From an uncultured Candidatus Saccharibacteria bacterium (GTDB lineage Bacteria > Patescibacteriota > Saccharimonadia > Saccharimonadales > Saccharimonadaceae), in NCBI GenBank assembly GCA_938018005.1, contig CALIJG010000020.1, forward strand, positions 81,063-145,062: a DNA stretch of 64,000 nucleotides. The letters run 5' to 3'. Both the position numbers and the translations under genes were made by a program. This document shows, piece by piece, positions 166-48,716 of this stretch. The number at the start of each line of letters is the position of its first letter. Within the stretch, counting starts at the first letter, position 1. The notes under the pieces are model-generated. The model worked only from the letters and a program-made list of their open reading frames with translations, searched no databases and was not told where the DNA came from.

Positions 166-240
166 TGGTGACCTCACCGGGAATCGAACCCGGATTGCCA
201 GGATGAAAACCTGGTGTCCTAACCGTTAGACGATGAGGCC
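166..240 (-). tRNA. tRNA-Glu (anticodon UUC)
   Basis: Reverse complement reads GGCCTCATCGTCTAACGGTTAGGACACCAGGTTTTCATCCTGGCAATCCGGGTTCGATTCCCGGTGAGGTCACCA. The 7-bp acceptor stem includes one G-U pair. D-stem is GTCT/GGAC. Anticodon stem is CCAGG/CCTGG with loop TTTTCAT, giving U33-TTC-A37. T-stem is CCGGG/CCCGG with a TTCGATT loop, then discriminator A and encoded CCA. Confidence 0.8.
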
Positions 241-400: not shown

Positions 401-1888
401 ATGGATATTTCGCCTGTTCCGACATCTGTGCTGGGAGAGCACCCACCCCAGCGTCCCGCCAAGCGGCGGCATAGCACACTCATGCTATGGGTGATGCTTG
501 CGGCGGCCATTACTGTGGTGCTCTCGGCTATTGCTGCAGCGGTGACTCTTCTCTCCTCGCCGCAGCGCATGCAGGCAGCGGCGGTATCGGCCGCACCATC
601 GCGCACCGATGTATTTCTGGCCAATGGCTATGGAGCAGGCCAGCACGCAGTGCGGTTTGCAGCGGGGCAGGGCGGCTTGAACTTCTTGGGTGGCACAGCC
701 GACCACTCGCGGCTCGCCATTGCAGGGCAGGGCGCGCAGGATGCCGCACCAGTGCTCCGCATTTGGGACACTAGGCACAAGCAGCCAGTCGCTACTTGGC
801 CAGCCAGTACCTGTAGCAGCGTCACACCGCGTGGAGTAGTGTATTGCGCCAGCCAGCAGCGAGGGCGCTCAGTCATTACCGCGGTAGACCTTGCCACCGC
901 TAAGGTTCTCTATGCTACCCCTGTAGCTGCCCAGCCAAGCACGCTCACATACTACGGCACAGATGGTCAGCAACAGGATATTATTGGCGAGAGCGCCGCC
1001 GCCACCTTCTACGCCGCCGCAGGGAGCCTGCACCCCATCACCAGTGGCGATTTTCAGAACCCCAACGCTACCTGCACGATAGCGAGCGGTAGCAAGCTTC
1101 TCTGTCGCCGTAATACCGAGAAAGACCACGGCGCTAAGCCATCCCAGAAGTCACCCAGCAAGCGCGCTACCTCACGTACCACCACCGGTGTCGTCATCAC
1201 AAATGAGCGCCAGGCGACCACTGCAGACCAACCGACGACCACCATCACCGTGTATGATATCACCAGCGGCACGCGCGAAGTGCAGCGCACAGCTAGCTCC
1301 AGCAACGTCACCTTGGCAAGCGATGGTTGGCTGGAGGGCACTGCTAGCAGTAATACCGTCCAATCCAGCGGGCAAGAGACCTTCGAGAGCTATGGCCTGG
1401 ACGGTAAGCCACGCGGCCGCAGCACTGTCAATAGCGCGTACAAGCTCAGCCCAGCCGCCAGCTCCTTCACTAACCCCGCTGGCACTACTGTGCCAACGTA
1501 CCCCCGAGAGGCTCTCACTACAGATATGCCGCGCGTCGTTGTGGATGGGCAGGGTAGAGAGTTCCTGCGTATTGCCAGCCAAAACACCCAAGACTTCGCC
1601 CTCAGCCAGGCTACCTACAGCCGCACCAGCGGTGGCACGCTCACCCTGGCTGACGGCGGCAACATTGTCTCCGCCAGCCTGGATGGCTCACTCCTCCTCA
1701 CCAGTAATCTCCACTCCGCCGGTATTCAAGCCAGCGGCAGTAAAGGTCTCAAGATCGTCAAAGTCGCCGATGGTACAACCCTCCTCACCATCAAAGGAAC
1801 CGACATGCGCAGCCTCACTATTCGTAGCAATCTCATCGCTAGCACCGGCAAGGACGGCACACTTGTGGTGTATGTGCCGGGCAAGTAG
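401..1888 (+). CDS. hypothetical membrane-anchored/secreted Thr/Ser/Gly-rich protein
   Basis: Long ORF. N-terminal basic stretch (KRR) is followed by a hydrophobic helix (MLWVMLAAAITVVLSAIAAAV). The rest is Thr/Ser/Ala/Gly-rich with no recognisable catalytic motif. Start is ambiguous (401 or 484) and no clear SD is present. Confidence 0.5.
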   Translation: MDISPVPTSVLGEHPPQRPAKRRHSTLMLWVMLAAAITVVLSAIAAAVTLLSSPQRMQAAAVSAAPSRTDVFLANGYGAGQHAVRFAAGQGGLNFLGGTADHSRLAIAGQGAQDAAPVLRIWDTRHKQPVATWPASTCSSVTPRGVVYCASQQRGRSVITAVDLATAKVLYATPVAAQPSTLTYYGTDGQQQDIIGESAAATFYAAAGSLHPITSGDFQNPNATCTIASGSKLLCRRNTEKDHGAKPSQKSPSKRATSRTTTGVVITNERQATTADQPTTTITVYDITSGTREVQRTASSSNVTLASDGWLEGTASSNTVQSSGQETFESYGLDGKPRGRSTVNSAYKLSPAASSFTNPAGTTVPTYPREALTTDMPRVVVDGQGREFLRIASQNTQDFALSQATYSRTSGGTLTLADGGNIVSASLDGSLLLTSNLHSAGIQASGSKGLKIVKVADGTTLLTIKGTDMRSLTIRSNLIASTGKDGTLVVYVPGK

Positions 1889-4689: not shown

Positions 4690-5130
4690 TTACGACTGAT
4701 CCTTCTTGCGCTTGCGCTCTAACTGCTCATTAAGTAGCTGAAGTGTGACAGCACTAATGCCTGTCGCATATGTACCACACGCTACCCCGTGCATCACCGC
4801 TTCTTCCATCTGGCGATGCTCGAGCCCATCGATGTTTGAGAACCCCTCGGCAGCAGCAATCTCCTCATCTGTCGTCATCACATGCTCAGCGACTGGATTA
4901 AGCAGGTTGCCCACTGGCTCCATATTGCCACTGTCATGATAGAGACTAATGCCTGTTGCGGCTGTTAGAGTCGCACCAATGGTGGCCAGCATCCCTAGTG
5001 CCCGCGCTGCTTTCTCACGCCGCGAGGATCGCTCGGGCGATTGTAATTTTTCTGCAAAACGCGTGACCCAGCTTGGCTTCTCGCTTGTGTGCCGTGCCCC
5101 AGCGTGTCGCATTTGTTGTGTTGTTGTCAT
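4690..5130 (-). CDS. hypothetical protein
   Basis: 146-aa ORF between the kinase and the response regulator. No motif I can assign with confidence. Several short antisense ORFs compete with it. Confidence 0.35.
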   Translation of the reverse strand: MTTTQQMRHAGARHTSEKPSWVTRFAEKLQSPERSSRREKAARALGMLATIGATLTAATGISLYHDSGNMEPVGNLLNPVAEHVMTTDEEIAAAEGFSNIDGLEHRQMEEAVMHGVACGTYATGISAVTLQLLNEQLERKRKKDQS

Positions 5131-5445
5131 AGTTCATCTTCCTCTGTTAGAGACAATATGATACCACGGTATGGATTTATAGTCAATGGTTACGTATCTG
5201 CGCCCAAAACCTCCAAATCTCTCATACTTATAGCTAGACTCACAGTACCCATGCCGAAGATATACACAGAGCGCTCCCGCCTTGCTTCATCGCTGGCCTT
5301 CAGATACGTTTTTCCAATCTCTCTATGCCAAATCCAATCGTGCGCCCACACCACCACTGAGGCGGCTCTTTCTATCACTTTCTCTCAAAAAAACCACAAG
5401 CACTATGGTATTTTTGCCGACAATTGCGTACAATAGAGGGTGATA

Positions 5446-15283: not shown

Positions 15284-16492
15284 TCAGGAAGGCTGTACCA
15301 TGTCTGCGGCGAATGTCACAGCTCGCCACAGTGGTTGCTGCTTATCCATTGCAGCAAGTGGCCCCATCATCTCACTCACACTCCCAAGATATGTCAGACG
15401 CGGCTTGTATGTCGCTGTCTCTTTCTCATCAGCAATAATACCATAGCTCTTCAGGGTATCTGTATCAGCCACGACTGTATTACTTGCCTGCGTCACGCCA
15501 ACGATCTTAACCTCAATCCCTGTTGCTGTCTCGACTTGTGCCACGACAATACCACCAGACATACCAGGCAAGACAGAATCCTCGCGCGCAGGATCATACG
15601 GTTCGTTCTCATCCACTGCTTCCTCTATTCCCGCCATCACAGTTATTTTGCCCTCAAGGCCATCTTGCGCTACTGGGAGGAGGACGTTGAGGTGTGGCTG
15701 ATTAGCTGGCCAGCGTGTAACCTGCGCTGGGCTGCTATTATTGCTATTGACAGGGAAGCCAAGCGCATACATTGGTTGGCCTTGTTGTATAATTGCCTTT
15801 GTTTCATCGGGAGTAGCAAATTGCAGGACAGGAGCAGGCGTATAATTCTGGTGACGCAATGTTAATGCCGCAACATCGGGCACTGTTGGTCTGTGGGGCC
15901 CGTCTGCTTTGCCAGTATAGCAACCACTCTGGACGGCATAGCGATGGCCATTGGTCGTTTCTACTGCGATATTACCTCTCTGGCGCTCAGACGACACAAC
16001 ATGCCCAGCCGTCAGCACCGCAGACCAACCACCCGGCGTTTCAACAATAAACCCACTTCCACCATAGTCTCCACCAGAGTCTGTCGCTTCACTGCCATAG
16101 ACATTAATCTTAACGACCGAAGGCTGCACCGCCTGCAACACTTCTTGCTTATGCCGCTCGAGGGCTGTACGATCACCAAGCGCCTCAGCAATCGCGATTG
16201 AGGGGCGGCGTGCAATCTCTGTTGGCTGCCCCAGATGCGGCTTCAGCATTGACTCATCCAGTGTCGTACAGGCTGGCAATGGCTCCTTCGCCTGAAGTGC
16301 CTCGAGTCGAGCACCTACGAATGACCACGTTCCCGCAAGCGTAGCGCCAAGCATCGCACACGATGCTCGCCAACCAATCGCTCGCCACAATCGCTGACGT
16401 CGCTCTGCCCGCTCTTGTTGTTGCCGCTCCATCCGCGTTTTTGGCTGAGAATGCGAACCAAAACTATGTTCTCGAACTGCCATTTCTGTCAT
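15284..16492 (-). CDS. membrane-anchored trypsin-like (S1 family) serine peptidase
   Basis: N-terminal TM (AMLGATLAGTW). His motif GGSGFIV...LTAGHVV. Ser motif GMSGGIVV. Confidence 0.65.
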   Translation of the reverse strand: MTEMAVREHSFGSHSQPKTRMERQQQERAERRQRLWRAIGWRASCAMLGATLAGTWSFVGARLEALQAKEPLPACTTLDESMLKPHLGQPTEIARRPSIAIAEALGDRTALERHKQEVLQAVQPSVVKINVYGSEATDSGGDYGGSGFIVETPGGWSAVLTAGHVVSSERQRGNIAVETTNGHRYAVQSGCYTGKADGPHRPTVPDVAALTLRHQNYTPAPVLQFATPDETKAIIQQGQPMYALGFPVNSNNSSPAQVTRWPANQPHLNVLLPVAQDGLEGKITVMAGIEEAVDENEPYDPAREDSVLPGMSGGIVVAQVETATGIEVKIVGVTQASNTVVADTDTLKSYGIIADEKETATYKPRLTYLGSVSEMMGPLAAMDKQQPLWRAVTFAADMVQPS

Positions 16493-16595
16493 GGTTTGGC
16501 CATTATAGCGCTTTGCGGGGCTAAATACAAATTTATAATAGTAGTTGACAGAGAAGAAACAGAGAACGCATTACCTCTGCACGTAGTATGGATAT

Positions 16596-34116: not shown

Positions 34117-35007
34117 TTATATTTTTGCGGCGGCTCGCAGCTTGGCGCTGCGGGCACGCGGATTGTAAGCATCGTCATGGCTGCCCGCGATAGGCTTCTT
34201 GGTGAGGATGCGCAGCTCGGCCTCGTAGCCTGCCTGGCGCTGCTCCGCGAAGAAGCGCTTGACGAGCCGATCCTCGAGGCTATGGAAGCTAATCACTCCC
34301 ACCCGTCCACCAGTGCGCAGCAAGGCTGGCACCAGCTGGAGCGTCTGCTCTACCTGCGTCAATTCATCATTGACGGCAATGCGGACTGCCTGAAAGGTAC
34401 GCGTGGCTGGATGGGTCTTGCCCCGCTTGCCACGGGTAGCGTGCTCGATGACGCTAGCGAGTTCTCCAGTATTCGACAGTGGCCGGGCCGCGCAAATAGC
34501 AGCAGCATAGCGCCGTGCTATCGCCGGCGGTTCTTCGCCGTAGCGGGCGATCAGTCGGGCAAGCTCTGCCTCTGCCATGTGGTTGACAATCTGCTCGGCA
34601 GTCATCGCCTGGCGTTGATCCATCCGCATATCAAGCGGGCCAGTGTGTGTAAAGGAAAACCCTCGGTCAGCTCGATCGAGCTGCGGTGACGACACCCCCA
34701 AATCCAGTAGCAATAAATCAAATTGCTCGCCCTCGCGAACCAACTGCTGTGCTGCCTGCAAAAAATCACAATGCATCAGTCGTGCGCCCTGCCCTGCCAA
34801 GCTACCAAGCTGCGACAAAGCATACTGGTCGCGATCGACCAAACACGCCGTGGTATACGTCTGGGTCTGCTCGAGAATCGCTGTGGCATGGCCGCCATAC
34901 CCCGCCGTCAGGTCGAGATAGCGCTCACCTGGGCGTGGCTGGAGCTGGGCCAACACTGCCTCCAGCAATACCGGAACATGAAGTGGTGGATGTGCTTTGA
35001 TACTCAT
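34117..35007 (-). CDS. rsmH: 16S rRNA (cytosine1402-N4)-methyltransferase RsmH (MraW)
   Basis: MSIKAHPPLHVPVLLEAVLAQL...YLDLTAGYGGHA signature. Confidence 0.9.
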   Translation of the reverse strand: MSIKAHPPLHVPVLLEAVLAQLQPRPGERYLDLTAGYGGHATAILEQTQTYTTACLVDRDQYALSQLGSLAGQGARLMHCDFLQAAQQLVREGEQFDLLLLDLGVSSPQLDRADRGFSFTHTGPLDMRMDQRQAMTAEQIVNHMAEAELARLIARYGEEPPAIARRYAAAICAARPLSNTGELASVIEHATRGKRGKTHPATRTFQAVRIAVNDELTQVEQTLQLVPALLRTGGRVGVISFHSLEDRLVKRFFAEQRQAGYEAELRILTKKPIAGSHDDAYNPRARSAKLRAAAKI

Positions 35008-35144
35008 ACGTTTCTTATGGTAGCATAATATTGCTTTCCTCCCCTACTGGTCGTGGCCTATTTAGCCAAAGAACAACAGAGAAACCGATACTAAGCTCGC
35101 TAGCTATACGCCGTCTCACGCCTTGCCTCACCACCTCCTGCGCT

Positions 35145-35225
35145 CGGGATCGCTATAAGGGTCAACATCTCCCAGATGTTGACCTCTTGCGCTGGGCTGA
35201 TAATCCGTTATTGCAACGGATTATC
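35145..35225 (+). repeat. copy 1 of a ~75-bp two-hairpin repeat element
   Basis: ATAAGGGTCAACATctcccagATGTTGACCTCTTGCGCTGGGCTGataatccgttATTGCAAcggattatc has two perfect palindromic stems. See copy 2 at 41508-41590 (inverted). Confidence 0.6.
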
Positions 35226-35634
35226 ACACTCCCTCGGCAGGAGGATGGCACGGCAATGCTACCGATAGGTATAGCCATGCTTTTCCATAAAGATACGCTC
35301 CGCTCAGGCTACTGCGAGATAGTCCGATGCGGGTTCGAGATCACCCACCTGGTAGCGAAACCTGTTTGTTTTCGCATAAAATGTGTTTGTTTTTGTTGAC
35401 GATCTTTGCTTATACCAGGCCGAGAGAGCCCGTCAAAGATCGTTTGAGAGACTTATGTGTATAATTGCCGCAGCAATTATGTGAGGTGGAGTTTTTTTGG
35501 GAGGTGTTTGTGAGGAAGGTGCGCCCGACAAGGTTTTGCGTGGGTCGGGTGCCCACATGGCTCACTACCAGATGGTCGATCTCGAGGATATCAGTTACAC
35601 GTACTTGTTAAAGAGCGTCACAAAAACAGCCTTG

Positions 35635-35997
35635 CTACTCGGCCTGCTCCGGTGCCATGAGGCGCCAATACTGGCCGGCGCGCACCGCCACAACCTCGCG
35701 CGATATCCCAGCATAATCCAGCAGATGCTGCTCTACCGTTACCCTGCCCTGCTTCTGGTCCAGAGTGGCAGCAGTCTTGCCGCGCCGGAACTTGACGTTG
35801 AGGTCGGCGACATGTTCATCCAGAATACTGCCTGTCAGCGCTGGCTCTACTTGGCTATCCCACACATCCTGCGCATACAGGTGGAGGTAGCTGCCAAAGC
35901 CGCGCGTCAGGACCACGCCACTGGCGAACTCCGCCCGAAGCTCCGTCGGTATGGTGAGCCGACGCTTGTCATCCAGCTTGCGTTCGAAGTAATCCAT
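35635..35997 (-). CDS. mraZ: transcriptional regulator MraZ
   Basis: MDYFERKLDDKRRLTIPTELRAEF...LDQKQGRVTVEQHL are the duplicated MraZ motifs. Lies at the head of the dcw cluster. Confidence 0.8.
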   Translation of the reverse strand: MDYFERKLDDKRRLTIPTELRAEFASGVVLTRGFGSYLHLYAQDVWDSQVEPALTGSILDEHVADLNVKFRRGKTAATLDQKQGRVTVEQHLLDYAGISREVVAVRAGQYWRLMAPEQAE

Positions 35998-36066
35998 GGG
36001 GTGTGGCGATCCTTACAGATGAATTATTTTGTTTTTGTGCAGTGGTGTTTGTTTTTCTCGTGGTTA

Positions 36067-36132
36067 CCCACTTTCTTCCACTACTCCCACTATACTACCC
36101 ACTCTCACCCACACGCAACCCTTTTTACCCAC
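36067..36132 (-). promoter_or_regulatory. predicted MraZ operator: six GTGGG-type direct repeats with ~10-bp phasing upstream of mraZ
   Basis: Plus-strand CCCAC/TCCAC at 36067, 36077, 36086, 36098, 36108 and 36128, i.e. GTGGG on the mraZ sense strand. The array sits 70-135 bp upstream of the mraZ ATG. Confidence 0.5.
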
Positions 36133-36346
36133 GGCATTCCCCGCCGCGCTGGTGCTTATCCACAAATCTGTGGAAAAGCTCAACCAGTATCAGGGGTCAG
36201 TAGTTTTCCCCACTCTGCACAATATGGATAAGAATAAGCGATATTGTTGAGTGTTTTGATCTGATCTAAGCGCATCTATAGTAGATATATCTTGCCATTT
36301 TATACGCACAAAAGTAGAAAATACGCTGATTTTATGGCATTATAAG

Positions 36347-39852: not shown

Positions 39853-41397
39853 TTATTCCTCCCGATTATTATGACTACGTGAACGACTGCGTGATGCGAC
39901 TGCTGGTCGGCGTGGCGGTGTAATCACCCCGCTAGAGCGTGCCGCTGACCCTGGTGTAGATGGTGGCATTTGGGGTGTTTGGGGTGGCGTTGGCGGCGTC
40001 GGTTTGGGTGGTACTGCTGGCGTAGAGCGCGCAGAGCGCGGCGATGATGATGTAGCTTGCGCCTGCGCGGTAGCTGGCTTAGCACTCGGCTTCTTGCGCG
40101 CTGGTACAGACGGCAGTGGCTCGATAGGCCGCTCTGCCTGTTTCTTCTGCTGCTGCAATACGCGAGCAAACCATAGCGCACTGGGGCGCGGTGTCCGCTT
40201 GTACGTCTTGTAGTCGACCGCAAAGAGGCCAAAGCGCGGCCAAAACCCTTTATCCCACTCGAAGTTATCAAGGAAGCTCCAGTGCATATATCCCAGCAGC
40301 TCTACCCCACTACCAAGAGCGCGCTGCATAGCCAGGATAGACTGAGTGAGCCATTGCTTGCGGAACTGGTCGCGCTCGTCAGCCACACCGTTCTCTGTCA
40401 CGAGCAGCGGTAGCTTATAGCGGCCCCAGAGACGCCCTAGTGCAAGCTCGAGATGATCGGGCTGCATTGTCCAGCCGAGATCGTTTGGCGTGGTCTCGGG
40501 GTTGTGGATGCGGTAGCCATAGATACGATTGCTAAAGTAATAATTGACGGCGATGTAATCACTCTGCCGCACCACCTTGCGCAGGAAATAATCATCCTGG
40601 AAGAACTGCACCACCCGCGCTGTCGCTCGGCTCAGCCAGGCGTCATCACCCGGGTAGGTGTAGGCCGAGTTTTTGGCCACCGCCACCTTGAAGCGCCGGC
40701 TCTTGGCGTGGAGGACCTTAGCCACTTGGTTGTGTGCATAGGCAAGATTGCTCAGCACGCGGTAGGTTTGCCACTTGCTGCGGACGTTGGGTGGCCAGGT
40801 GCCATTGTAGTAGCTCTCGGTCACGTAGACGCAGGGCTCATTGACGGTAATGACATAGCGCACCGTTGCACCAATCTCATCCATCAGTTTATCGACAAAG
40901 CGCACAAAATACTTCACATTATCGCGCTTCGCAAAGCCCCCCTGGGCAGCAAACCATACCGGCAGCGTGAAGTGAAACAGTGTCACGACTGGCTCCAGCC
41001 CAGCATCGGCCAGCGCGGCCAAGTATGCCTTGTAGTATTTGATCGCCTCGGCATTCCACGCGCCCTCTTCTGGCTCGATGCGCGACCACTCCACACTAAA
41101 GCGCCACGAGGTGAGGCCCATCTTCTTGGCCAGGGCGAAGTCTTGTGCGTAAAGCTCGGCGTGGTTGGCAGCTTTGCCCGAGATATAATTGTTTGGATCT
41201 TTGGCGGCACTGGCAATGTGCGGCCAGTTGGGCAAGTCGCCATATTGATATTGGCTCTGAGCAGCGAGGGTCTTGGCCTGAGCTTTTTCCCACTCCGACC
41301 ACTGGTTGTGCATACCACCCTCGACCTGATGCGCGCTCGTCGCAGCGCCCCAGAGGAAATGTTTTGGAAATTGCACCGTAGATTGTTGCTTAGCCAT
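39853..41397 (-). CDS. glycoside hydrolase family 1 beta-glucosidase with ~100-aa Pro/Ala/Ser-rich C-terminal tail
   Basis: GH1 N-terminal signature FLWGAATSAHQVEGG and nucleophile motif LLVTENGVAD. Confidence 0.85.
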   Translation of the reverse strand: MAKQQSTVQFPKHFLWGAATSAHQVEGGMHNQWSEWEKAQAKTLAAQSQYQYGDLPNWPHIASAAKDPNNYISGKAANHAELYAQDFALAKKMGLTSWRFSVEWSRIEPEEGAWNAEAIKYYKAYLAALADAGLEPVVTLFHFTLPVWFAAQGGFAKRDNVKYFVRFVDKLMDEIGATVRYVITVNEPCVYVTESYYNGTWPPNVRSKWQTYRVLSNLAYAHNQVAKVLHAKSRRFKVAVAKNSAYTYPGDDAWLSRATARVVQFFQDDYFLRKVVRQSDYIAVNYYFSNRIYGYRIHNPETTPNDLGWTMQPDHLELALGRLWGRYKLPLLVTENGVADERDQFRKQWLTQSILAMQRALGSGVELLGYMHWSFLDNFEWDKGFWPRFGLFAVDYKTYKRTPRPSALWFARVLQQQKKQAERPIEPLPSVPARKKPSAKPATAQAQATSSSPRSARSTPAVPPKPTPPTPPQTPQMPPSTPGSAARSSGVITPPRRPAVASRSRSRSHNNREE

Positions 41398-41507
41398 AAT
41401 GCTTATTGTACCATCAGTAGAGGATTAAGAAAAATAGAATTATTGGGTGGAAGTATGATCTCTCTTTGTTTGCGCTCGCTCCACCTTCCCATCACTTCAT
41501 CCGATGG

Positions 41508-41590
41508 AGTGTGGAAACAGATTGCAATAATCTGTTTGCAGCCCAGCGCAAGAGGTCGACATCCAGCGAATGTCGACCCTTATCTCCAGA
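41508..41590 (-). repeat. copy 2 (inverted) of the ~75-bp two-hairpin repeat element
   Basis: The reverse complement reads ATAAGGGTCGACATtcgctggATGTCGACCTCTTGCGCTGGGCTGcaaacagattATTGCAAtctgtttcc. Hairpin-A stems differ from copy 1 by a compensatory pair. Hairpin-B stems are entirely different but still palindromic around a conserved ATTGC loop. Confidence 0.6.
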
Positions 41591-41643
41591 TATTTTCTTG
41601 TCCAATAGCATGATACTAGCTAGACACAGAAAATATCTCTTCC

Positions 41644-42759
41644 CTACTCCGGCAGTTGCTCATTCTCGCGCAGGATTTTCTTGCCGCGCATTTCGTATTT
41701 GACACCGGTCAGGTCGCTCGTGACGTAGTCATCGTTGAGGAGATTAACAAAAACGGCTGCATCCTTGGCATCCATGATAATGATACTCCCTGCCGCGTCG
41801 TCCGTCATCAGGCCCAGGCCCATTTCATCAGCGTGGTCAATGAGTTGGTCTTGTGTCACTTGGGCAGGATCGAGCTTTTGCAGTTTAGTCACCAGCGCTG
41901 GTGTGTCGCGCACCAGGCGGTCGAGCGTGAGTCCCTCAGGCAAGGTAAGTTTGAACTGCTGAGTGATGGCAGCGATCTTTTCCTCTGCCACAGCATGCTT
42001 TTTGGCATCGTAGCCAAAAAGCCGGACAAATTTGCTCTCGCTAAAGGCAAAGATATCGTTGCCGACGATTAATACTTGATTATCCGGCGTGATGCGCAGA
42101 CCAGCATCAGCCACAAATGGCTGGAATGACCCACCGCTGTACATCCAGGCGGTTGCTCCCTTGAGCACCTGCGACTGGGGCAGCAGCTTGGCCACAAAGA
42201 ATGGCTCGCCATCTGTGCCCATCCGGAAGCGCGCAATGATACCCTTAACCTTCTTAAACTCATGGTCACCCTCGTTGAAGGTCTCAAGATCTGCCTCGCT
42301 GTAAGTGATCTGCTCGATGACTTCTTGAGCGTGCACTACCCGGTCGAGTGTGGTGCGCTCGAGAACATTCTCCTCAGCCTTGGCCGCCTCAAAGTCGCGC
42401 ACCATCAGGCCAGTCGCTGCACCCGTCTGCACCGCTGTGATCATATCGTAGAGGAAGAGCACCTTGAGCTGCGCCTTGAGCTCAGCTGCATAGTTGGTGG
42501 CATACACTGTATAGCCCTTGGTGAAGAGAAAGAGATCCACCTCTAACTGGTCTTTGTCGCGATCGGCTTGATTGGCCCAGAGGAAGATGTCGGTAGCATC
42601 GGTAGATGTGCCAGCCGTAGACTGTGCGGTAGTATCTGTTGGCTGAGCCTCGGCATAAGCAGCTACATCTGCGTCACTCTGCGGCACAGCAGCTGACTCT
42701 GGTGACGTTACTGGGGTGATATCGGTGGTGGGGGTTTGTGTGTTTGGTTCGTTATGCAT
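41644..42759 (-). CDS. hypothetical protein, third gene of the AAA+ operon (N-terminal Thr/Ala-rich region plus ~300-aa globular part)
   Basis: 371-aa ORF lying 54 nt after the preceding gene. No confidently recognisable domain; mixed alpha/beta composition. Confidence 0.5.
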   Translation of the reverse strand: MHNEPNTQTPTTDITPVTSPESAAVPQSDADVAAYAEAQPTDTTAQSTAGTSTDATDIFLWANQADRDKDQLEVDLFLFTKGYTVYATNYAAELKAQLKVLFLYDMITAVQTGAATGLMVRDFEAAKAEENVLERTTLDRVVHAQEVIEQITYSEADLETFNEGDHEFKKVKGIIARFRMGTDGEPFFVAKLLPQSQVLKGATAWMYSGGSFQPFVADAGLRITPDNQVLIVGNDIFAFSESKFVRLFGYDAKKHAVAEEKIAAITQQFKLTLPEGLTLDRLVRDTPALVTKLQKLDPAQVTQDQLIDHADEMGLGLMTDDAAGSIIIMDAKDAAVFVNLLNDDYVTSDLTGVKYEMRGKKILRENEQLPE

Positions 42760-42813
42760 GGTTTCTAGTGTACTATATTTAGGGTGTAAAGCCTATTGCT
42801 ACATCCAGTAGTG

Positions 42814-43713
42814 TTACCGCTCGTCGCTTGCTGGCCCATGCCCCAGCGTCTCCAGTGTGCGGTCAACCACCTTTTGGGCAAAGCGCTGCACATCACTATC
42901 ACTGTGTAGGTCGAGCCCCTCACCTTGGTCGATGAGAAAGCTGTGTGGCGGGAGATCTGAAACCATGCAGATTGGCCAACCATAGCTTCGCCCCCTCATA
43001 AACCCCATAGCGTGGCGTATGTTATTTGGCTCATGTTCCTTGAGGGCAAATACCCCGCGGCGCAAGAATGCTGGGTGTGCCAAGCAAAATGCCGCTGTGT
43101 CGATATCCAGATATTCCCCGGGCTGCACCACTGGTATCTGATATTCGACGCCACGGATATATCTATCATCTTCTTCTGTAGACTCAACCATCGTGAGGCC
43201 AAGCGAGTACCCCTCAGTACGCAATGCCTCGATCGCCGCATACAGTGCCCCACCACGCTGCATAATTCGCTCGGACGAAACTCTGCTAGACATCGATGCA
43301 TTAACATACATCATTGCCTGCTTCCCATGAGTATCCTGGCGCACTTGATAATCTACCATATGCTCGGGCTCACCGTGTAGGTAAGCGCCAATATCTACCT
43401 CATCACCAGCGAAATCTAGCCGAGACTCTACAATTGGTCGCCGCCCCACTAGCTGATCTATAGCCACACGTCCCACTACTTGGCGCAAGCGCTGGCGGCC
43501 CTCTTCCCAGCCATAGCGCGCTAACTCGAGCGCCTCATCCATCGTCCTTGTGCCCGACCACCGCTCCTCATCTGTCCTCAGGCTCGCTGCTCCGAGGTCA
43601 GACTGCTCTTGCTGCTCGGGCGCATGCTGCATCGCATCAATCATTTCGCCAATGCTATCGAGCTGACGAAAGTGCATCGTACGACCGTCATACTCTTGCT
43701 CAGAGCGACGCAT
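42814..43713 (-). CDS. hypothetical protein, second gene of the AAA+ operon (possible degenerate vWA-like fold)
   Basis: Start is immediately adjacent to the ATPase stop, suggesting translational coupling. The segment MMYVNASMSS...GGALYAAIEALRTEGYSLGLTMV weakly resembles the vWA beta1-MIDAS/alpha1/beta2 region. This is inference only. Confidence 0.5.
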   Translation of the reverse strand: MRRSEQEYDGRTMHFRQLDSIGEMIDAMQHAPEQQEQSDLGAASLRTDEERWSGTRTMDEALELARYGWEEGRQRLRQVVGRVAIDQLVGRRPIVESRLDFAGDEVDIGAYLHGEPEHMVDYQVRQDTHGKQAMMYVNASMSSRVSSERIMQRGGALYAAIEALRTEGYSLGLTMVESTEEDDRYIRGVEYQIPVVQPGEYLDIDTAAFCLAHPAFLRRGVFALKEHEPNNIRHAMGFMRGRSYGWPICMVSDLPPHSFLIDQGEGLDLHSDSDVQRFAQKVVDRTLETLGHGPASDER

Positions 43714-45393
43714 CTAGTGACTCCTCGGCCGCTTACCACCCACGTCGGGGTGCTGCCTCAGCCAATTACACAGGGTAAATCGCCCAGGAACAAAACCGTG
43801 GCAGGCTTCAAATTGCTTGGCGTAATCCTGGACGTCATGGTCGTTCAATTGCGAAAAGTGGTCTTTCACAAACTCTATTCGGTCATGTACTTCCGTCTTG
43901 ATGTGGTCATTATCATTATCCTCTGTTTCCCATTGTGTGATGTCCCCACGGTCGCGCTGCCAACGCCGATCCTCTACATTGACTGCAGCAACTATATCTG
44001 AGACAAGGACCTTTTTTGTCGTCCAAATTTCGGGGTCTCCAAAGACCCGCCCTACTGCCCTGGATATTGTTGGCGTTTGCGATATGTCCGTTAGCTCACG
44101 CGAATGCATCGATTCCAAGTCCCAACACACTCGGACAAATATACTAGTCTCGTAGTTGCTCGTGTCTAATTTATTGATATTATAACAGTCTGGTAAGAAA
44201 CGACGTATAGAACTATCAAGAGATCTCTCAAGCCATCGTGTATTCGTTCTATCGATAGTAATTTCTTTATCCTCCGGTGGTGTAAACCACTCACTATCGT
44301 CTTTCTTTTCAGTATCTTTTGGCTGAGTTTCTTGAGATGACTTACTGTGAGATTCATCAAGCTCTTTGCCTTTCGTAGCTTCGCGAGTCTTGTAGTCAAG
44401 CGCCTCCTGCACCCTCGGCATCAACCGCTTGGCATTCTCAGCTAGCTTCTCGCGGTCATGCTCCTTCATACCCTTATAGAGGAGCATCTCGCCCAGCCAG
44501 TCCTTACCGACGCCTAACTCAGCTAGGCGTACACCATACAGGCTAGCACGCTGGCTAATGATAGCGCGGATACCAAGCTCGCCCAGTGCCTGGCGGTGCG
44601 CTCGCACCGTAGCCAGCCACTCTTTGGGGCTAGGTACCTCACCAGCCGAGATGTCGAGTGGCGAGCGGTTTATCTCCGTGCCAAGTATCAGCGCGTCCTC
44701 CAAATATTCATCAGTGTCCATTGGGATGAAGGCAAAGCGGTCGATGGTGGCTGCATCGATCGGTGCCCGGCCCACATACTCACTCGTTGCTCCGCGGCCA
44801 ATCGTGTTGGCACTGGCGATGAAGCGCGCCGTCTCGTGGCGTGGCACTCTGCTATCCGGGAACTCACCATGGCCATTGGCAAGCGCACTGTTGAGGATAG
44901 TCAAAATACTTGCGCTACCATTATCGATCTCATCAAACATAAAGACACCACCATTCTCATACACCTCACGGTAGGCTGTGTTATGGTAGTTACCCGTTGC
45001 ATCGCGATAGCCCATAAGGTCGGACTTGGATGTCGTTGGCCCGAGCGATATAGAGCGAAATGGCAAGCCAAGGCTATCTGCCGCTTGCTCACCAGCAGTC
45101 GACTTGCCACTCCCTGCCTCACCATGCAGCCAGATAGGTACATCTGCCTGCAAGGCTGCGCGCACGAGGGGCGTGTGGTAATGCGACGGTTTGGCTCTGT
45201 TAACAAACTGCTGCAATGCAGGGTATTCCTGCTGCCGTGTTGTATGATCCAGCGCGAGGATCGTCCGCAGTGCGTTCACAACCTCCTCGCTCGTCCCTTG
45301 GTGTAGTTGCTCCACAACCTGGCGCGCTTCGCTCAAGTCTGCAGCCACCCCCCGGTGTGCTGCTTCGATATCGTGCAGCGTTTTGCCGCTCAT
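43714..45393 (-). CDS. MoxR-like (AAA_5-type) AAA+ ATPase with long acidic C-terminal extension
   Basis: Walker A LHGEAGSGKST, Walker B VFMFDEID, sensor-1 FIASANT, Arg near IDRFAF. A C-terminal ~250 aa is acidic and of unknown function. The annotated ATG 45393 has no SD, whereas the RBS-equipped ATG 45502 is out of frame. See the SSR feature. Confidence 0.7.
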   Translation of the reverse strand: MSGKTLHDIEAAHRGVAADLSEARQVVEQLHQGTSEEVVNALRTILALDHTTRQQEYPALQQFVNRAKPSHYHTPLVRAALQADVPIWLHGEAGSGKSTAGEQAADSLGLPFRSISLGPTTSKSDLMGYRDATGNYHNTAYREVYENGGVFMFDEIDNGSASILTILNSALANGHGEFPDSRVPRHETARFIASANTIGRGATSEYVGRAPIDAATIDRFAFIPMDTDEYLEDALILGTEINRSPLDISAGEVPSPKEWLATVRAHRQALGELGIRAIISQRASLYGVRLAELGVGKDWLGEMLLYKGMKEHDREKLAENAKRLMPRVQEALDYKTREATKGKELDESHSKSSQETQPKDTEKKDDSEWFTPPEDKEITIDRTNTRWLERSLDSSIRRFLPDCYNINKLDTSNYETSIFVRVCWDLESMHSRELTDISQTPTISRAVGRVFGDPEIWTTKKVLVSDIVAAVNVEDRRWQRDRGDITQWETEDNDNDHIKTEVHDRIEFVKDHFSQLNDHDVQDYAKQFEACHGFVPGRFTLCNWLRQHPDVGGKRPRSH

Positions 45394-48394: not shown

Positions 48395-48716
48395 AAAAAA
48401 CTCCCTTCTCTTATCCTGCACTGCCAGGCGAGAAAGGAACTGCTCTCTTATGCGTCTCATATCTTCCCTGCGCACAGGCTGGAATTAGCACCTTACTCGC
48501 TTCCCGAGCAGGTTGCTGGCGAGTCATCGGGCCAGTCCCTCGTCGCACTCTGGATATTAGTGATATTGGTAATAGTATAGCATATATTTATGCTAGGAAT
48601 ACCTACCCTATCGATGTAGCACAACGCGATAAGAAAGATACAACTACACTCAAGTTATCTCGCAGCCAGATTTTCCATAACTAAAAAACCGGCCGCTATG
48701 ACCGGTTTCTTGCTAC

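Follow-up and report, generated by a model that had tools for sequence, protein, structure and literature searches.

Two inverted hairpin-forming sequences in a Candidatus Saccharibacteria contig belong to a dispersed family of intergenic sequences with maintained pairing

The 64-kb stretch of DNA analysed here (the window) carries two related intergenic sequences in mutually inverted orientation, each with two hairpins whose stems differ between the copies while the linker that joins them is the same. What kind of element is this: an RNA, a leader of the neighbouring genes, the two ends of a mobile segment, a site at the level of DNA, or a repeat whose structure is maintained wherever it happens to lie? 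The first-pass annotation had proposed a conserved element of about 75 bp under structural selection, being either a structured RNA or a repeated mobile/REP-like element, and had set aside a protein operator.

Two copies of one element in the window

Direct comparison confirmed that both copies read ATAAGGGTC[A/G]ACAT, 7 nt, ATGT[T/C]GACC, then TCTTGCGCTGGGCTG, and then a hairpin with an ATTGC loop. The compensatory A:T to G:C change reported for the stem of hairpin A is seen between the copies, the stems of hairpin B are unrelated in sequence yet self-complementary in each copy (GATAATCCGTT/AACGGATTATC versus AAACAGATT/AATCTGTTT) around the same ATTGC loop, and the alignment shows the same linker in both. 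The proposed extent of about 75 bp stood only in part: the two inner hairpins are real, but the conserved unit is three-armed and about 150 nt long. On the 3' side the copies stay similar through CACACTCC[C/A]TCGG, and copy 1 resembles the family on its 5' side as well, into a long closing stem. The 19-mer GACCTCTTGCGCTGGGCTG has exactly two matches in the 64-kb window, on opposite strands, and two matches were obtained in none of 100 shuffled sequences. A profile search of the 64-kb window returned no third copy. The features are as follows.

34117-35007, minus strand: rsmH, the gene context of copy 1.
35115-35264, plus strand: copy 1, a full-length element (positions 1-151 of 151 of the covariance model R1, 122.6 bits, E ~1e-27).
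35120-35147, plus strand: 5' arm of the closing stem P1/P2 of copy 1 (GCCTTGCCTCACCACCTCCTGCGCTCGG), from the P1/P2 columns of R1.
35156-35189, plus strand: hairpin A of copy 1 (TAAGGGTCAACAT-CTCCCAG-ATGTTGACCTCTTG), from sequence and fold.
35190-35198, plus strand: linker between the hairpins of copy 1 (CGCTGGGCT, part of CCTCTTGCGCTGGGCTG), identical in both window copies.
35199-35225, plus strand: hairpin B of copy 1 (GATAATCCGTT-ATTGC-AACGGATTATC), from sequence and fold.
35225-35259, plus strand: CACACTCC box of copy 1, followed by the P2/P1 3' arm (…CTCGGCAGGAGGATGGCACGGCAATGC), from alignment, R1 and fold.
35635-35997, minus strand: mraZ, an ORF identified via contigs encoding an identical GH1 protein.
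39853-41397, minus strand: GH1 gene, with copy 2 on the same strand 106 nt upstream of its start codon.
41473-41502, minus strand: remnant of the P2/P1 3' arm of copy 2 (GGATGAAGTGATGGGAAGGTGGAGCGAGCG), whose 5' partner is gone, read from the sequence.
41503-41583, minus strand: copy 2, a truncated element with hairpin A, linker, hairpin B and CACACTCC box (R1 positions 41-121 only, 78.3 bits).
41584-41603, minus strand: 20-nt stub of a second repeat family (GGACAAGAAAATATCTGGAG), abutting copy 2 where 111 bp are missing.

In the minimum free energy folds of copy 1, both as RNA and as DNA, the arm at 35120-35147 pairs with 35236-35259, and the fold reaches -71.9 kcal/mol (z = -8.5). Both strands of the 150-nt unit fold to a similar degree, and far better than shuffled sequences (z ~-8), again as RNA or as DNA. 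Within the family, copy 1 belongs to a diverged 'dcw-spacer' subtype. Copy 2 has a different history, which can be read from its orthologues: its remnant GGATGAAGTGATGGGAAGGTGGAGCGAGCG matches the 3' arm of full-length orthologues in the alignment, and the copy at the GH1 site in locus L003, which is from a strain of the same organism, and in other loci is full-length, with 111 bp extra where copy 2 stops. The 5' arm of copy 2 was thus lost in a 111-bp deletion, which is common to several assemblies.

The gene context given for the two copies also held, with copy 1 upstream of rsmH and antisense to it, and copy 2 upstream of the GH1 gene and in the sense orientation. Since the minus-strand ORF at 35635-35997 is mraZ, copy 1 lies in the mraZ-rsmH spacer, which is unusually long (627 bp), and is antisense to both of these dcw genes. 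A plus-strand ORF at 35497-36231 had been considered as a gene downstream of copy 1; with no match in Pfam, and with mraZ overlapping it on the other strand, it is taken as spurious. Downstream of the GH1 gene are genes for a CofD-family protein, an unknown protein and a nucleotidyl transferase, and the contigs with an identical GH1 protein derive from human oral metagenomes. Consensus scans for sigma-70 promoters and intrinsic terminators found none at either window copy. A TATAAG sequence is conserved at the foot of hairpin A, with no -35 partner visible by eye. In the whole window, only a SAM riboswitch and a tRNA pass the Rfam gathering threshold.

Distribution, architecture and maintenance of pairing

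One genome per bacterial species was scanned in 8-kb tiles with the pattern TAAGGGTC-N15-19-GACCTCTTG-N3-10-GGGCTG, which gave at least 117 tiles; among the matches listed, all are from Candidatus Saccharibacteria, in at least 37 assemblies and often with several tiles per genome. Because this pattern partly forces the conservation of its own motifs (TAAGGGTC, GACCTCTTG and GGGCTG) in the genome set, an independently anchored scan of metagenomes was run with the 21-mer CACACTCCATCGGATGAAGTG, by which this effect could be corrected. It gave at least 117 further stretches, from oral metagenomes, and among the matches listed the first pattern is also present in 71 of 97 distinct copies; most of the others depart from it by one or two bases, or have the foot of hairpin A altered in a compensatory way (GGGTGAATAT…ATATTCACC). 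With the covariance model R1 (52 pairs in 151 positions), 110 full-length copies were detected in the genome loci, which total 0.84 Mb, and 96 in the metagenome loci, which total 0.82 Mb. The pair in the window therefore does not stand alone, as the first-pass annotation had allowed that it might: many copies exist, and they covary in other genomes.

The Rfam search that had been suggested for identifying a known RNA gave no meaningful match to either copy; with E values up to 10, the best matches of both window copies and of one canonical copy were far below threshold. Scans of viral contigs, phage genomes and plasmids gave zero matches to the family, and a full-text literature search found no description of such an element in Saccharibacteria. 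The family, undescribed before, has so far been found only in Candidatus Saccharibacteria assemblies and metagenome contigs. Its members are small (about 150 nt), non-coding (no ORF), multi-copy and dispersed at about 20 sites.

Many copies aligned with their flanks define a unit that measures about 150 nt; weakly conserved ends extend it to about 190 nt. Its consensus begins with 5'-(TCT)CACGCTCACCCTCCCCACA, CTCCCTCCtccGG, AACACTA and hairpin A (TAAGGGTCGAyayy-loop-rrtrTCGACCTCTTG), continues with CGCTGGGCT, hairpin B (GAAAAC…ATTAC…GTTTTC), ACAC and TCCATCGGATGAAGTG, and ends with (A)TGGGGAGGGTGAGC and TAACGCAGAGA-3'. The closing stem, P1 plus P2, is long and imperfect (about 22 modelled pairs), with a C/U-rich 5' arm and a G/A-rich 3' arm, and encloses hairpin A, the conserved linker (CCUCUUGCGCUGGGCUG), hairpin B and a conserved CACACUCCAUCGGAUGAAGUG segment. 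As the 5' arm pairs with the 3' arm, the whole unit has the shape of a Y, with two hairpins on a long stem. The P1/P2 arms, roughly 30-40 nt each, are complementary in nearly all copies, and their sequence is variable and covarying. In the independently anchored set, the positions conserved at 95% or more are internal (CTATAAGGGT, ACCTCTTG, GCTG and CACACTCCATC), and the closing stem and the distal stems of the hairpins are variable; the linker CGCTGGGCT reaches at least 95% in this metagenome set, as does CACACTCCATC, for which the set was not selected. No conserved sequence was found outside the unit across the copies, either upstream or downstream. Conserved extensions past the unit had been suggested by k-mer enrichment in the flanks, which reflected orthology and not sequence of the element.

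The pairing itself is strongly maintained. In the model-fitted alignment of 100 distinct copies, 95.3% of cells are paired, against 84.4% in shuffles (none of 500 reached the observed value) and 38–46% when the partners were slid, and both-sided changes occur at 33 of the 52 pairs, including 20 of the 22 closing-stem pairs. Since this alignment had been fitted to the model, the pairing was recounted on a seed alignment made by MAFFT only, which gave 95.0% paired cells against 90.1% in shuffles and 41–48% when slid. Moreover, RNAalifold recovered hairpins A and B unaided on the unfitted alignment. In the family alignment, the upper stem of hairpin A covaries, and both-sided changes occur at 7 of the 15 pairs of the hairpin B helix. 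When orthologous copies from the same site in different genomes were compared two at a time (176 comparisons), a base pair had changed on both sides in 480 instances, where independent change would predict 74; in 433 of the 480, the two new bases could still pair. Stepwise series through G.U intermediates were also seen, for example in P1 at the site represented by loci L008, L027 and L122. The fold has clearly been preserved in evolution, and the earlier proposal of structural selection is strongly backed both by the pairing across the family and by the compensatory changes between orthologues. Such covariation would also be expected for single-stranded DNA hairpins or for palindromes corrected at the DNA level, and it is therefore no proof of an RNA function.

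The question of which strand might be transcribed was approached through the asymmetry of G.U versus A.C pairs, which picked out neither strand: G.U pairs occur on either strand in different stems, and the counts of G.U versus A.C are ambiguous. The reverse strand folds better in 98 of 109 copies, mostly via one inherited asymmetry in P2.

A second, unrelated family of hairpin-forming repeats came to light in the same loci. Like the first, it has a variable closing stem around a conserved core (AAGAAAATATCTGGAGGCCAGC … CTGGCCGGAACATTTTCGG); it gave 116 matches in 96 of the 241 fetched loci, and adjoins many copies of the first family. It has no Rfam match, and no complete copy of it is present in the 64-kb window. 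The presence of this second family indicates that hairpin-forming repeats are a general feature of these genomes.

Genomic behaviour and competing explanations

Copies of the first family are mostly intergenic, and their orientation with respect to the neighbouring genes is essentially random: according to crude ORF calls, 24 are co-directional and sense, 14 co-directional and antisense, 22 lie between divergent genes and 20 between convergent genes. The distances to downstream genes vary widely. The flanking genes include those for DNA ligase, glutamyl- and threonyl-tRNA synthetases, a type II secretion protein F homologue, a formyltransferase, nucleoside diphosphate kinase, argininosuccinate synthase, a response regulator and an Xer-type recombinase. 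No transposase was found among the flanking genes examined, which are unrelated housekeeping genes; no Y1/HUH transposase gene is present near any copy among these neighbours, and the 1.9 Mb of fetched loci contain no longer element with the same arms.

By matching of the flanks, the genome copies fall into about 20 orthologous sites, and at most of these every genome has the element. Identity is about 90% between orthologous copies, 88% between their flanks and about 74% between non-orthologous copies, which shows that the family is old and mostly vertically inherited. In 10 of the 16 site groups with several members, both orientations occur between the same flanks; this was checked by eye for the dcw spacer and for the site upstream of the threonyl-tRNA synthetase gene. 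Opposite orientations at the same site were found even in strains with an identical GH1 protein, and the dcw spacer of locus L001, from a strain of the same organism, has a diverged element in the opposite orientation. The orientation variants at one site have diverged in sequence and so are not the product of simple flips in the recent past. It was also considered whether the core might, as a general rule, flip often between arms that stay in place; this was discarded, since the arms nearly always travel with the core: the canonical arrangement of arms and core was found in 87 copies, and a flipped core in about 2–5 (for example L007 and L035). Neither an internal promoter that could be switched by flipping nor a dedicated invertase was recognised.

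Mobility of the family is weakly documented. The only clean case of an empty site is locus L086, compared with the filled loci L111, L077 and L100 (about 258 bp including the element), and no consistent target-site duplication was found with the element. In the L086 comparison there is an 11-bp flanking direct repeat (CTTGACACyAC), which overlaps a TTGACA box, and a systematic search for target-site duplications found direct repeats to be no commoner than in mismatched controls. Derivatives of the unit include truncated copies, degenerate copies and core-less solo hairpins, which arise by deletion between the two internal CACACTCC direct repeats.

These observations bear unequally on the possible explanations. 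That the sequences are cis-regulatory leaders of the GH1 operon and of rsmH and the dcw genes, that is, riboswitches or protein-binding 5' untranslated regions, is an idea drawn from copy 2, which lies on the same strand as the GH1 gene 106 nt upstream of its start codon, and from an anti-SD-like CACACUCC box and an SD-like GGGGAGGUGGAG in the arms. It is highly improbable, because copy 1 is antisense to rsmH, another strain has the opposite orientation in the same spacer, the orientation is random family-wide (with 20 copies between convergent genes) at variable distances, and the neighbouring genes have no function in common. With orientations so distributed and neighbours so varied, a leader or riboswitch of the GH1 gene or rsmH is excluded, and so is a mobile block of 6.4 kb. 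In the latter case the two copies, which are mutually inverted and face inward across 35.3–41.5 kb, would serve as terminal inverted repeats for an invertible segment or composite transposon with mraZ through the GH1 operon inside it. We give this the smallest chance of all and reject it, since each copy has its own orthologous site in many genomes independently of the other and all strains recovered have the same order of genes from one copy to the other; furthermore, the family is dispersed at about 20 sites, and the dcw-spacer copy changes its orientation alone. A site acting as DNA, whether as a recombination or invertible module or by offering a DNA-binding protein, for example a tyrosine recombinase or nucleoid protein, a place to bind, fits better with the data but is still rather improbable in our judgement. 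Hairpin A would then be an 11-(5-7)-11 inverted-repeat core site and the long arms would drive the flipping. Such a site would agree with the occurrence of either orientation at the same site in 10 of 16 site groups, with the rare core-flipped copies L007 and L035, with a function, if any, that appears to be independent of orientation, with the folding of both DNA strands (z ~-8), and with one site that lies 38–91 nt downstream of an Xer-type tyrosine recombinase gene. On the other side, changes that preserve complementarity and not sequence are unexpected for a double-stranded protein-binding site, the orientation variants differ substantially in sequence, no switchable promoter was recognised in the core, and the Xer-like gene, next to only one of about 20 sites, looks like a housekeeping XerC/D type.

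A further alternative is that each copy is a structured non-coding RNA gene in its own right, or that the unit is a self-contained module of RNA, for instance a ribozyme or an RNA bound by a protein. It would form a three-way junction in which the conserved junction nucleotides do the work and the stems have only to stay paired, and with every copy using transcription signals of its own, the orientation towards neighbouring genes would be irrelevant. The contrast between a variable, covarying closing stem and junction, linker and loop nucleotides that are at least 95% conserved speaks for it, as do the G.U intermediates in the compensatory series of P1 at the L008/L027/L122 site, the retention of copies at syntenic sites in at least 37 genomes, and the fact that at orientation-variant sites the arms nearly always travel with the core, as a self-contained unit would. 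The pattern of conservation is the reverse of that in a classical MITE, with the termini (P1) being the most variable part and the interior conserved at 95% or more, and a conserved interior with variable termini is what functional structured RNAs typically show, or else elements whose interior a protein recognises. In addition, retention at syntenic sites in at least 37 species-level genomes, with a divergence similar to that of the partly coding flanks, suggests constraint and not junk. The conserved interior, the covarying variable termini and the long syntenic retention keep a structured RNA, or a structure recognised by a protein, as the main rival. Nevertheless, independent RNA genes seem unlikely to us: no promoter- or terminator-like signal is present in or beside the window copies, the sequences on either side of the unit are not conserved across copies, neither strand stands out, Rfam holds no relative, and about 20 copies per genome of about 1 Mb, together with truncated, core-deleted and degenerate copies, fit a repeat better.

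We therefore favour, with somewhat more confidence than doubt, the explanation that both sequences in the window are members of a new family of non-coding, structured, palindromic intergenic repeats, which would exert any effect through their structure and not as dedicated regulators. Between the two readings offered at the outset, the dispersal to about 20 syntenic sites, the near-random orientation, the occurrence of both orientations at one site, the empty site and the deletion derivatives favour a REP-like repeat, while an RNA function is without support. According to this repeat model, the family would have spread to about 20 intergenic sites in an ancestor of the clade and then been inherited mainly vertically, with the units keeping their pairing by compensatory change, and also being inverted, losing the core between the CACACTCC repeats, or decaying. 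The units would have no strand-specific role tied to their neighbours, and any effect would come from the structure of the nucleic acid itself. A read-through transcript from either side would form a long duplex and two hairpins, and such a duplex could act as a processing or stability element, either through RNase III or as a barrier to exonucleases, by analogy with what has been reported for Correia, ERIC and BOX; this effect on RNA processing is proposed from that analogy. In DNA, the same unit would be a cruciform-capable and recombination-prone palindrome. Copy 1 would then be an intact unit in the mraZ-rsmH spacer, and copy 2 a 5'-truncated unit in front of the GH1 operon.

A bolder possibility, which we regard as unlikely but worth stating, is a new class of autonomous structured nucleic acid in Patescibacteria: an RNA of about 150 nt folded as a three-way junction, or else a structure of single-stranded DNA that is specific to one strand. 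A dedicated protein would recognise its invariant junction core, and a cellular role, such as RNA processing, recombination control or defence, would be the reason why about 20 syntenic sites are retained per 1-Mb genome. Such a class may form a wider system together with the second family of variable stem and conserved core.

Significance and comparison with known systems

Saccharibacteria are ultra-small epibionts with genomes of about 1 Mb, and in so little DNA one would not expect two abundant families of structured repeats that keep to conserved intergenic sites. If they are selfish or neutral palindromes, they are still useful markers of rearrangement and recombination in a group that is hard to culture, and also account for oddities like the 627 bp between mraZ and rsmH. 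Should the conserved core have a protein partner or function as RNA, the candidate phyla radiation would contain a new class of structured nucleic acid. Annotation should mask or label the family, lest copies upstream of genes pass for riboswitches.

Among known systems, the three-way-junction non-coding RNAs of Rfam, including riboswitch- and ribozyme-like ones, resemble the new family in having covarying stems around conserved junction nucleotides; unlike them, it matches no model, is randomly oriented, includes decayed and truncated copies, and has no transcription signals that we could find. With MITEs, it shares complementary ends, a small, dispersed, non-coding and multi-copy character, and a pair of filled and empty sites; the arms vary, unlike those of typical MITEs, and no cognate IS or transposase was found in the 1.9 Mb of fetched loci or in the flanking genes. 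REP/BIME and REPIN sequences are extragenic palindromes with compensatory stems, in which REPs of 20–40 nt carry the conserved tetranucleotide GTAG at the 5' end and have a RAYT transposase gene associated with them. The new family is likewise multi-copy, occurs in both orientations and keeps its stems by compensatory change, but it forms a three-way structure of 150 nt, and no Y1 transposase is present among the neighbours examined.

The closest in behaviour are BOX, ERIC/Correia and the Rickettsia palindromic elements (RPE). The BOX repeats of Streptococcus pneumoniae (boxA-boxB-boxC) are short and non-coding and lie between genes in many copies. Their complementary outer modules close a stable stem around the inner ones; they occur in either orientation and, to our knowledge, have no known transposase. 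The new family is similarly multi-copy and intergenic, with complementary arms around an inner part, either orientation and no known transposase, but differs in lacking any sequence similarity, in having two defined hairpins and a conserved linker instead of a variable number of boxB units, and in the largely syntenic position of its copies across species. ERIC/IRU and the Correia elements (CREE) of Neisseria are intergenic imperfect palindromes of about 100–160 bp that form long hairpins when transcribed, as the new family would, and the effects on mRNA processing and stability through RNase III reported for ERIC and Correia are the model for the mechanism proposed here. Correia elements end in conserved repeats of 26 bp and duplicate a TA at the target, whereas the new family varies most at its termini and no duplication of a regular kind was seen with it. 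RPE are elements of about 100–150 bp in a reduced genome, which appear to have spread anciently and then to have been kept at orthologous positions, and which often sit in frame inside genes; we know of no recognisable transposase, terminal repeat or target duplication for them. Apart from its mostly intergenic copies, the new family resembles RPE in having no recognisable transposase, in residing in a reduced genome, and in an apparent ancient spread that was followed by retention at orthologous sites.

Empty site, mraZ-rsmH spacer and start regions

The only clean case found of an empty site for the element is positions 2215-2232 of L086, one of the loci fetched from other Saccharibacteria assemblies and metagenome contigs, when it is compared with the filled loci L111, L077 and L100. 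The insertion has an 11-bp repeat (CTTGACACyAC) on both sides, and this repeat and the TTGACA box of a promoter-like sequence (TTGACA-N19-TATAAT) overlap. Where the element precedes the threonyl-tRNA synthetase gene, its right flank is similar, being C-rich and promoter-like (TTGCAC-CCACCCCCAC…TACAAT). The unusually long mraZ-rsmH spacer (627 bp, window 35008-35634) occurs in two forms among strains with an identical GH1 protein: the element lies in one orientation in the window, L002 and L003, and a diverged element lies in the other orientation in L001 (spacer at 15764-16523, also containing an assembly gap of Ns).

Upstream of the start codons of GH1 (window 41398-41425, minus strand) and rsmH (35008-35035, minus strand), TACAAT/TACCAT followed by AAG was seen by eye, with only about 6-9 nt between AAG and the start codon in both genes, and no Shine-Dalgarno sequence was seen before either. 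Since these motifs stand so close to the start codons and a Shine-Dalgarno sequence is lacking, the mRNAs of this organism may have very short leaders or be leaderless.

Core-less derivatives and a second repeat family

Derivatives of the element without the core, in which the two arms of the closing stem are directly joined ('solo hairpins'), were found at four loci:
L030 5921-5976, solo hairpin
L060 6416-6471, solo hairpin
L104 about 5116-5238, solo hairpin
L132 around 5860, solo hairpin

They apparently arose by deletion between the pair of CACACTCC (or GGAGTG) direct repeats inside the element. A second hairpin repeat family is abundant (116 matches in 96 of the 241 fetched loci, both orientations), and its conserved core, AAGAAAATATCTGGAGGCCAGC…GCGG…CTGGCCGGAACATTTTCGG, is enclosed by a variable, covarying closing stem. 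It had no match in Rfam.
Window 41584-41603, minus strand, 20-nt stub adjoining copy 2 (the truncated element upstream of GH1), the family's sole trace in the window
L007 1725-1839, plus strand, complete unit (example)
L009 around 5035, minus strand, complete unit (example)

A short ORF (MFRPEY…GRRPPDIFL…; L142 about 1200-1333, plus strand, also L180 and L213) begins within a repeat of the second family and continues into a solo hairpin belonging to the first; this ORF is probably fortuitous.

Other features of the window

A defence-island-like block (window 41644-45393 and beyond, minus strand), encoding a KwaB-like protein (Kiwa), DUF7192, an AAA_5 ATPase and a PIF1-type helicase, lies between the S-adenosylmethionine synthetase and GH1 genes and ends immediately upstream of copy 2. 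Two RNA features were also present:
169-240, minus strand, tRNA gene (Rfam, 63 bits)
48456-48560, minus strand, full-length SAM-I riboswitch (76 bits)

Because an S-adenosylmethionine synthetase gene occupies the corresponding region in orthologous contigs, the riboswitch is probably the leader of this gene.
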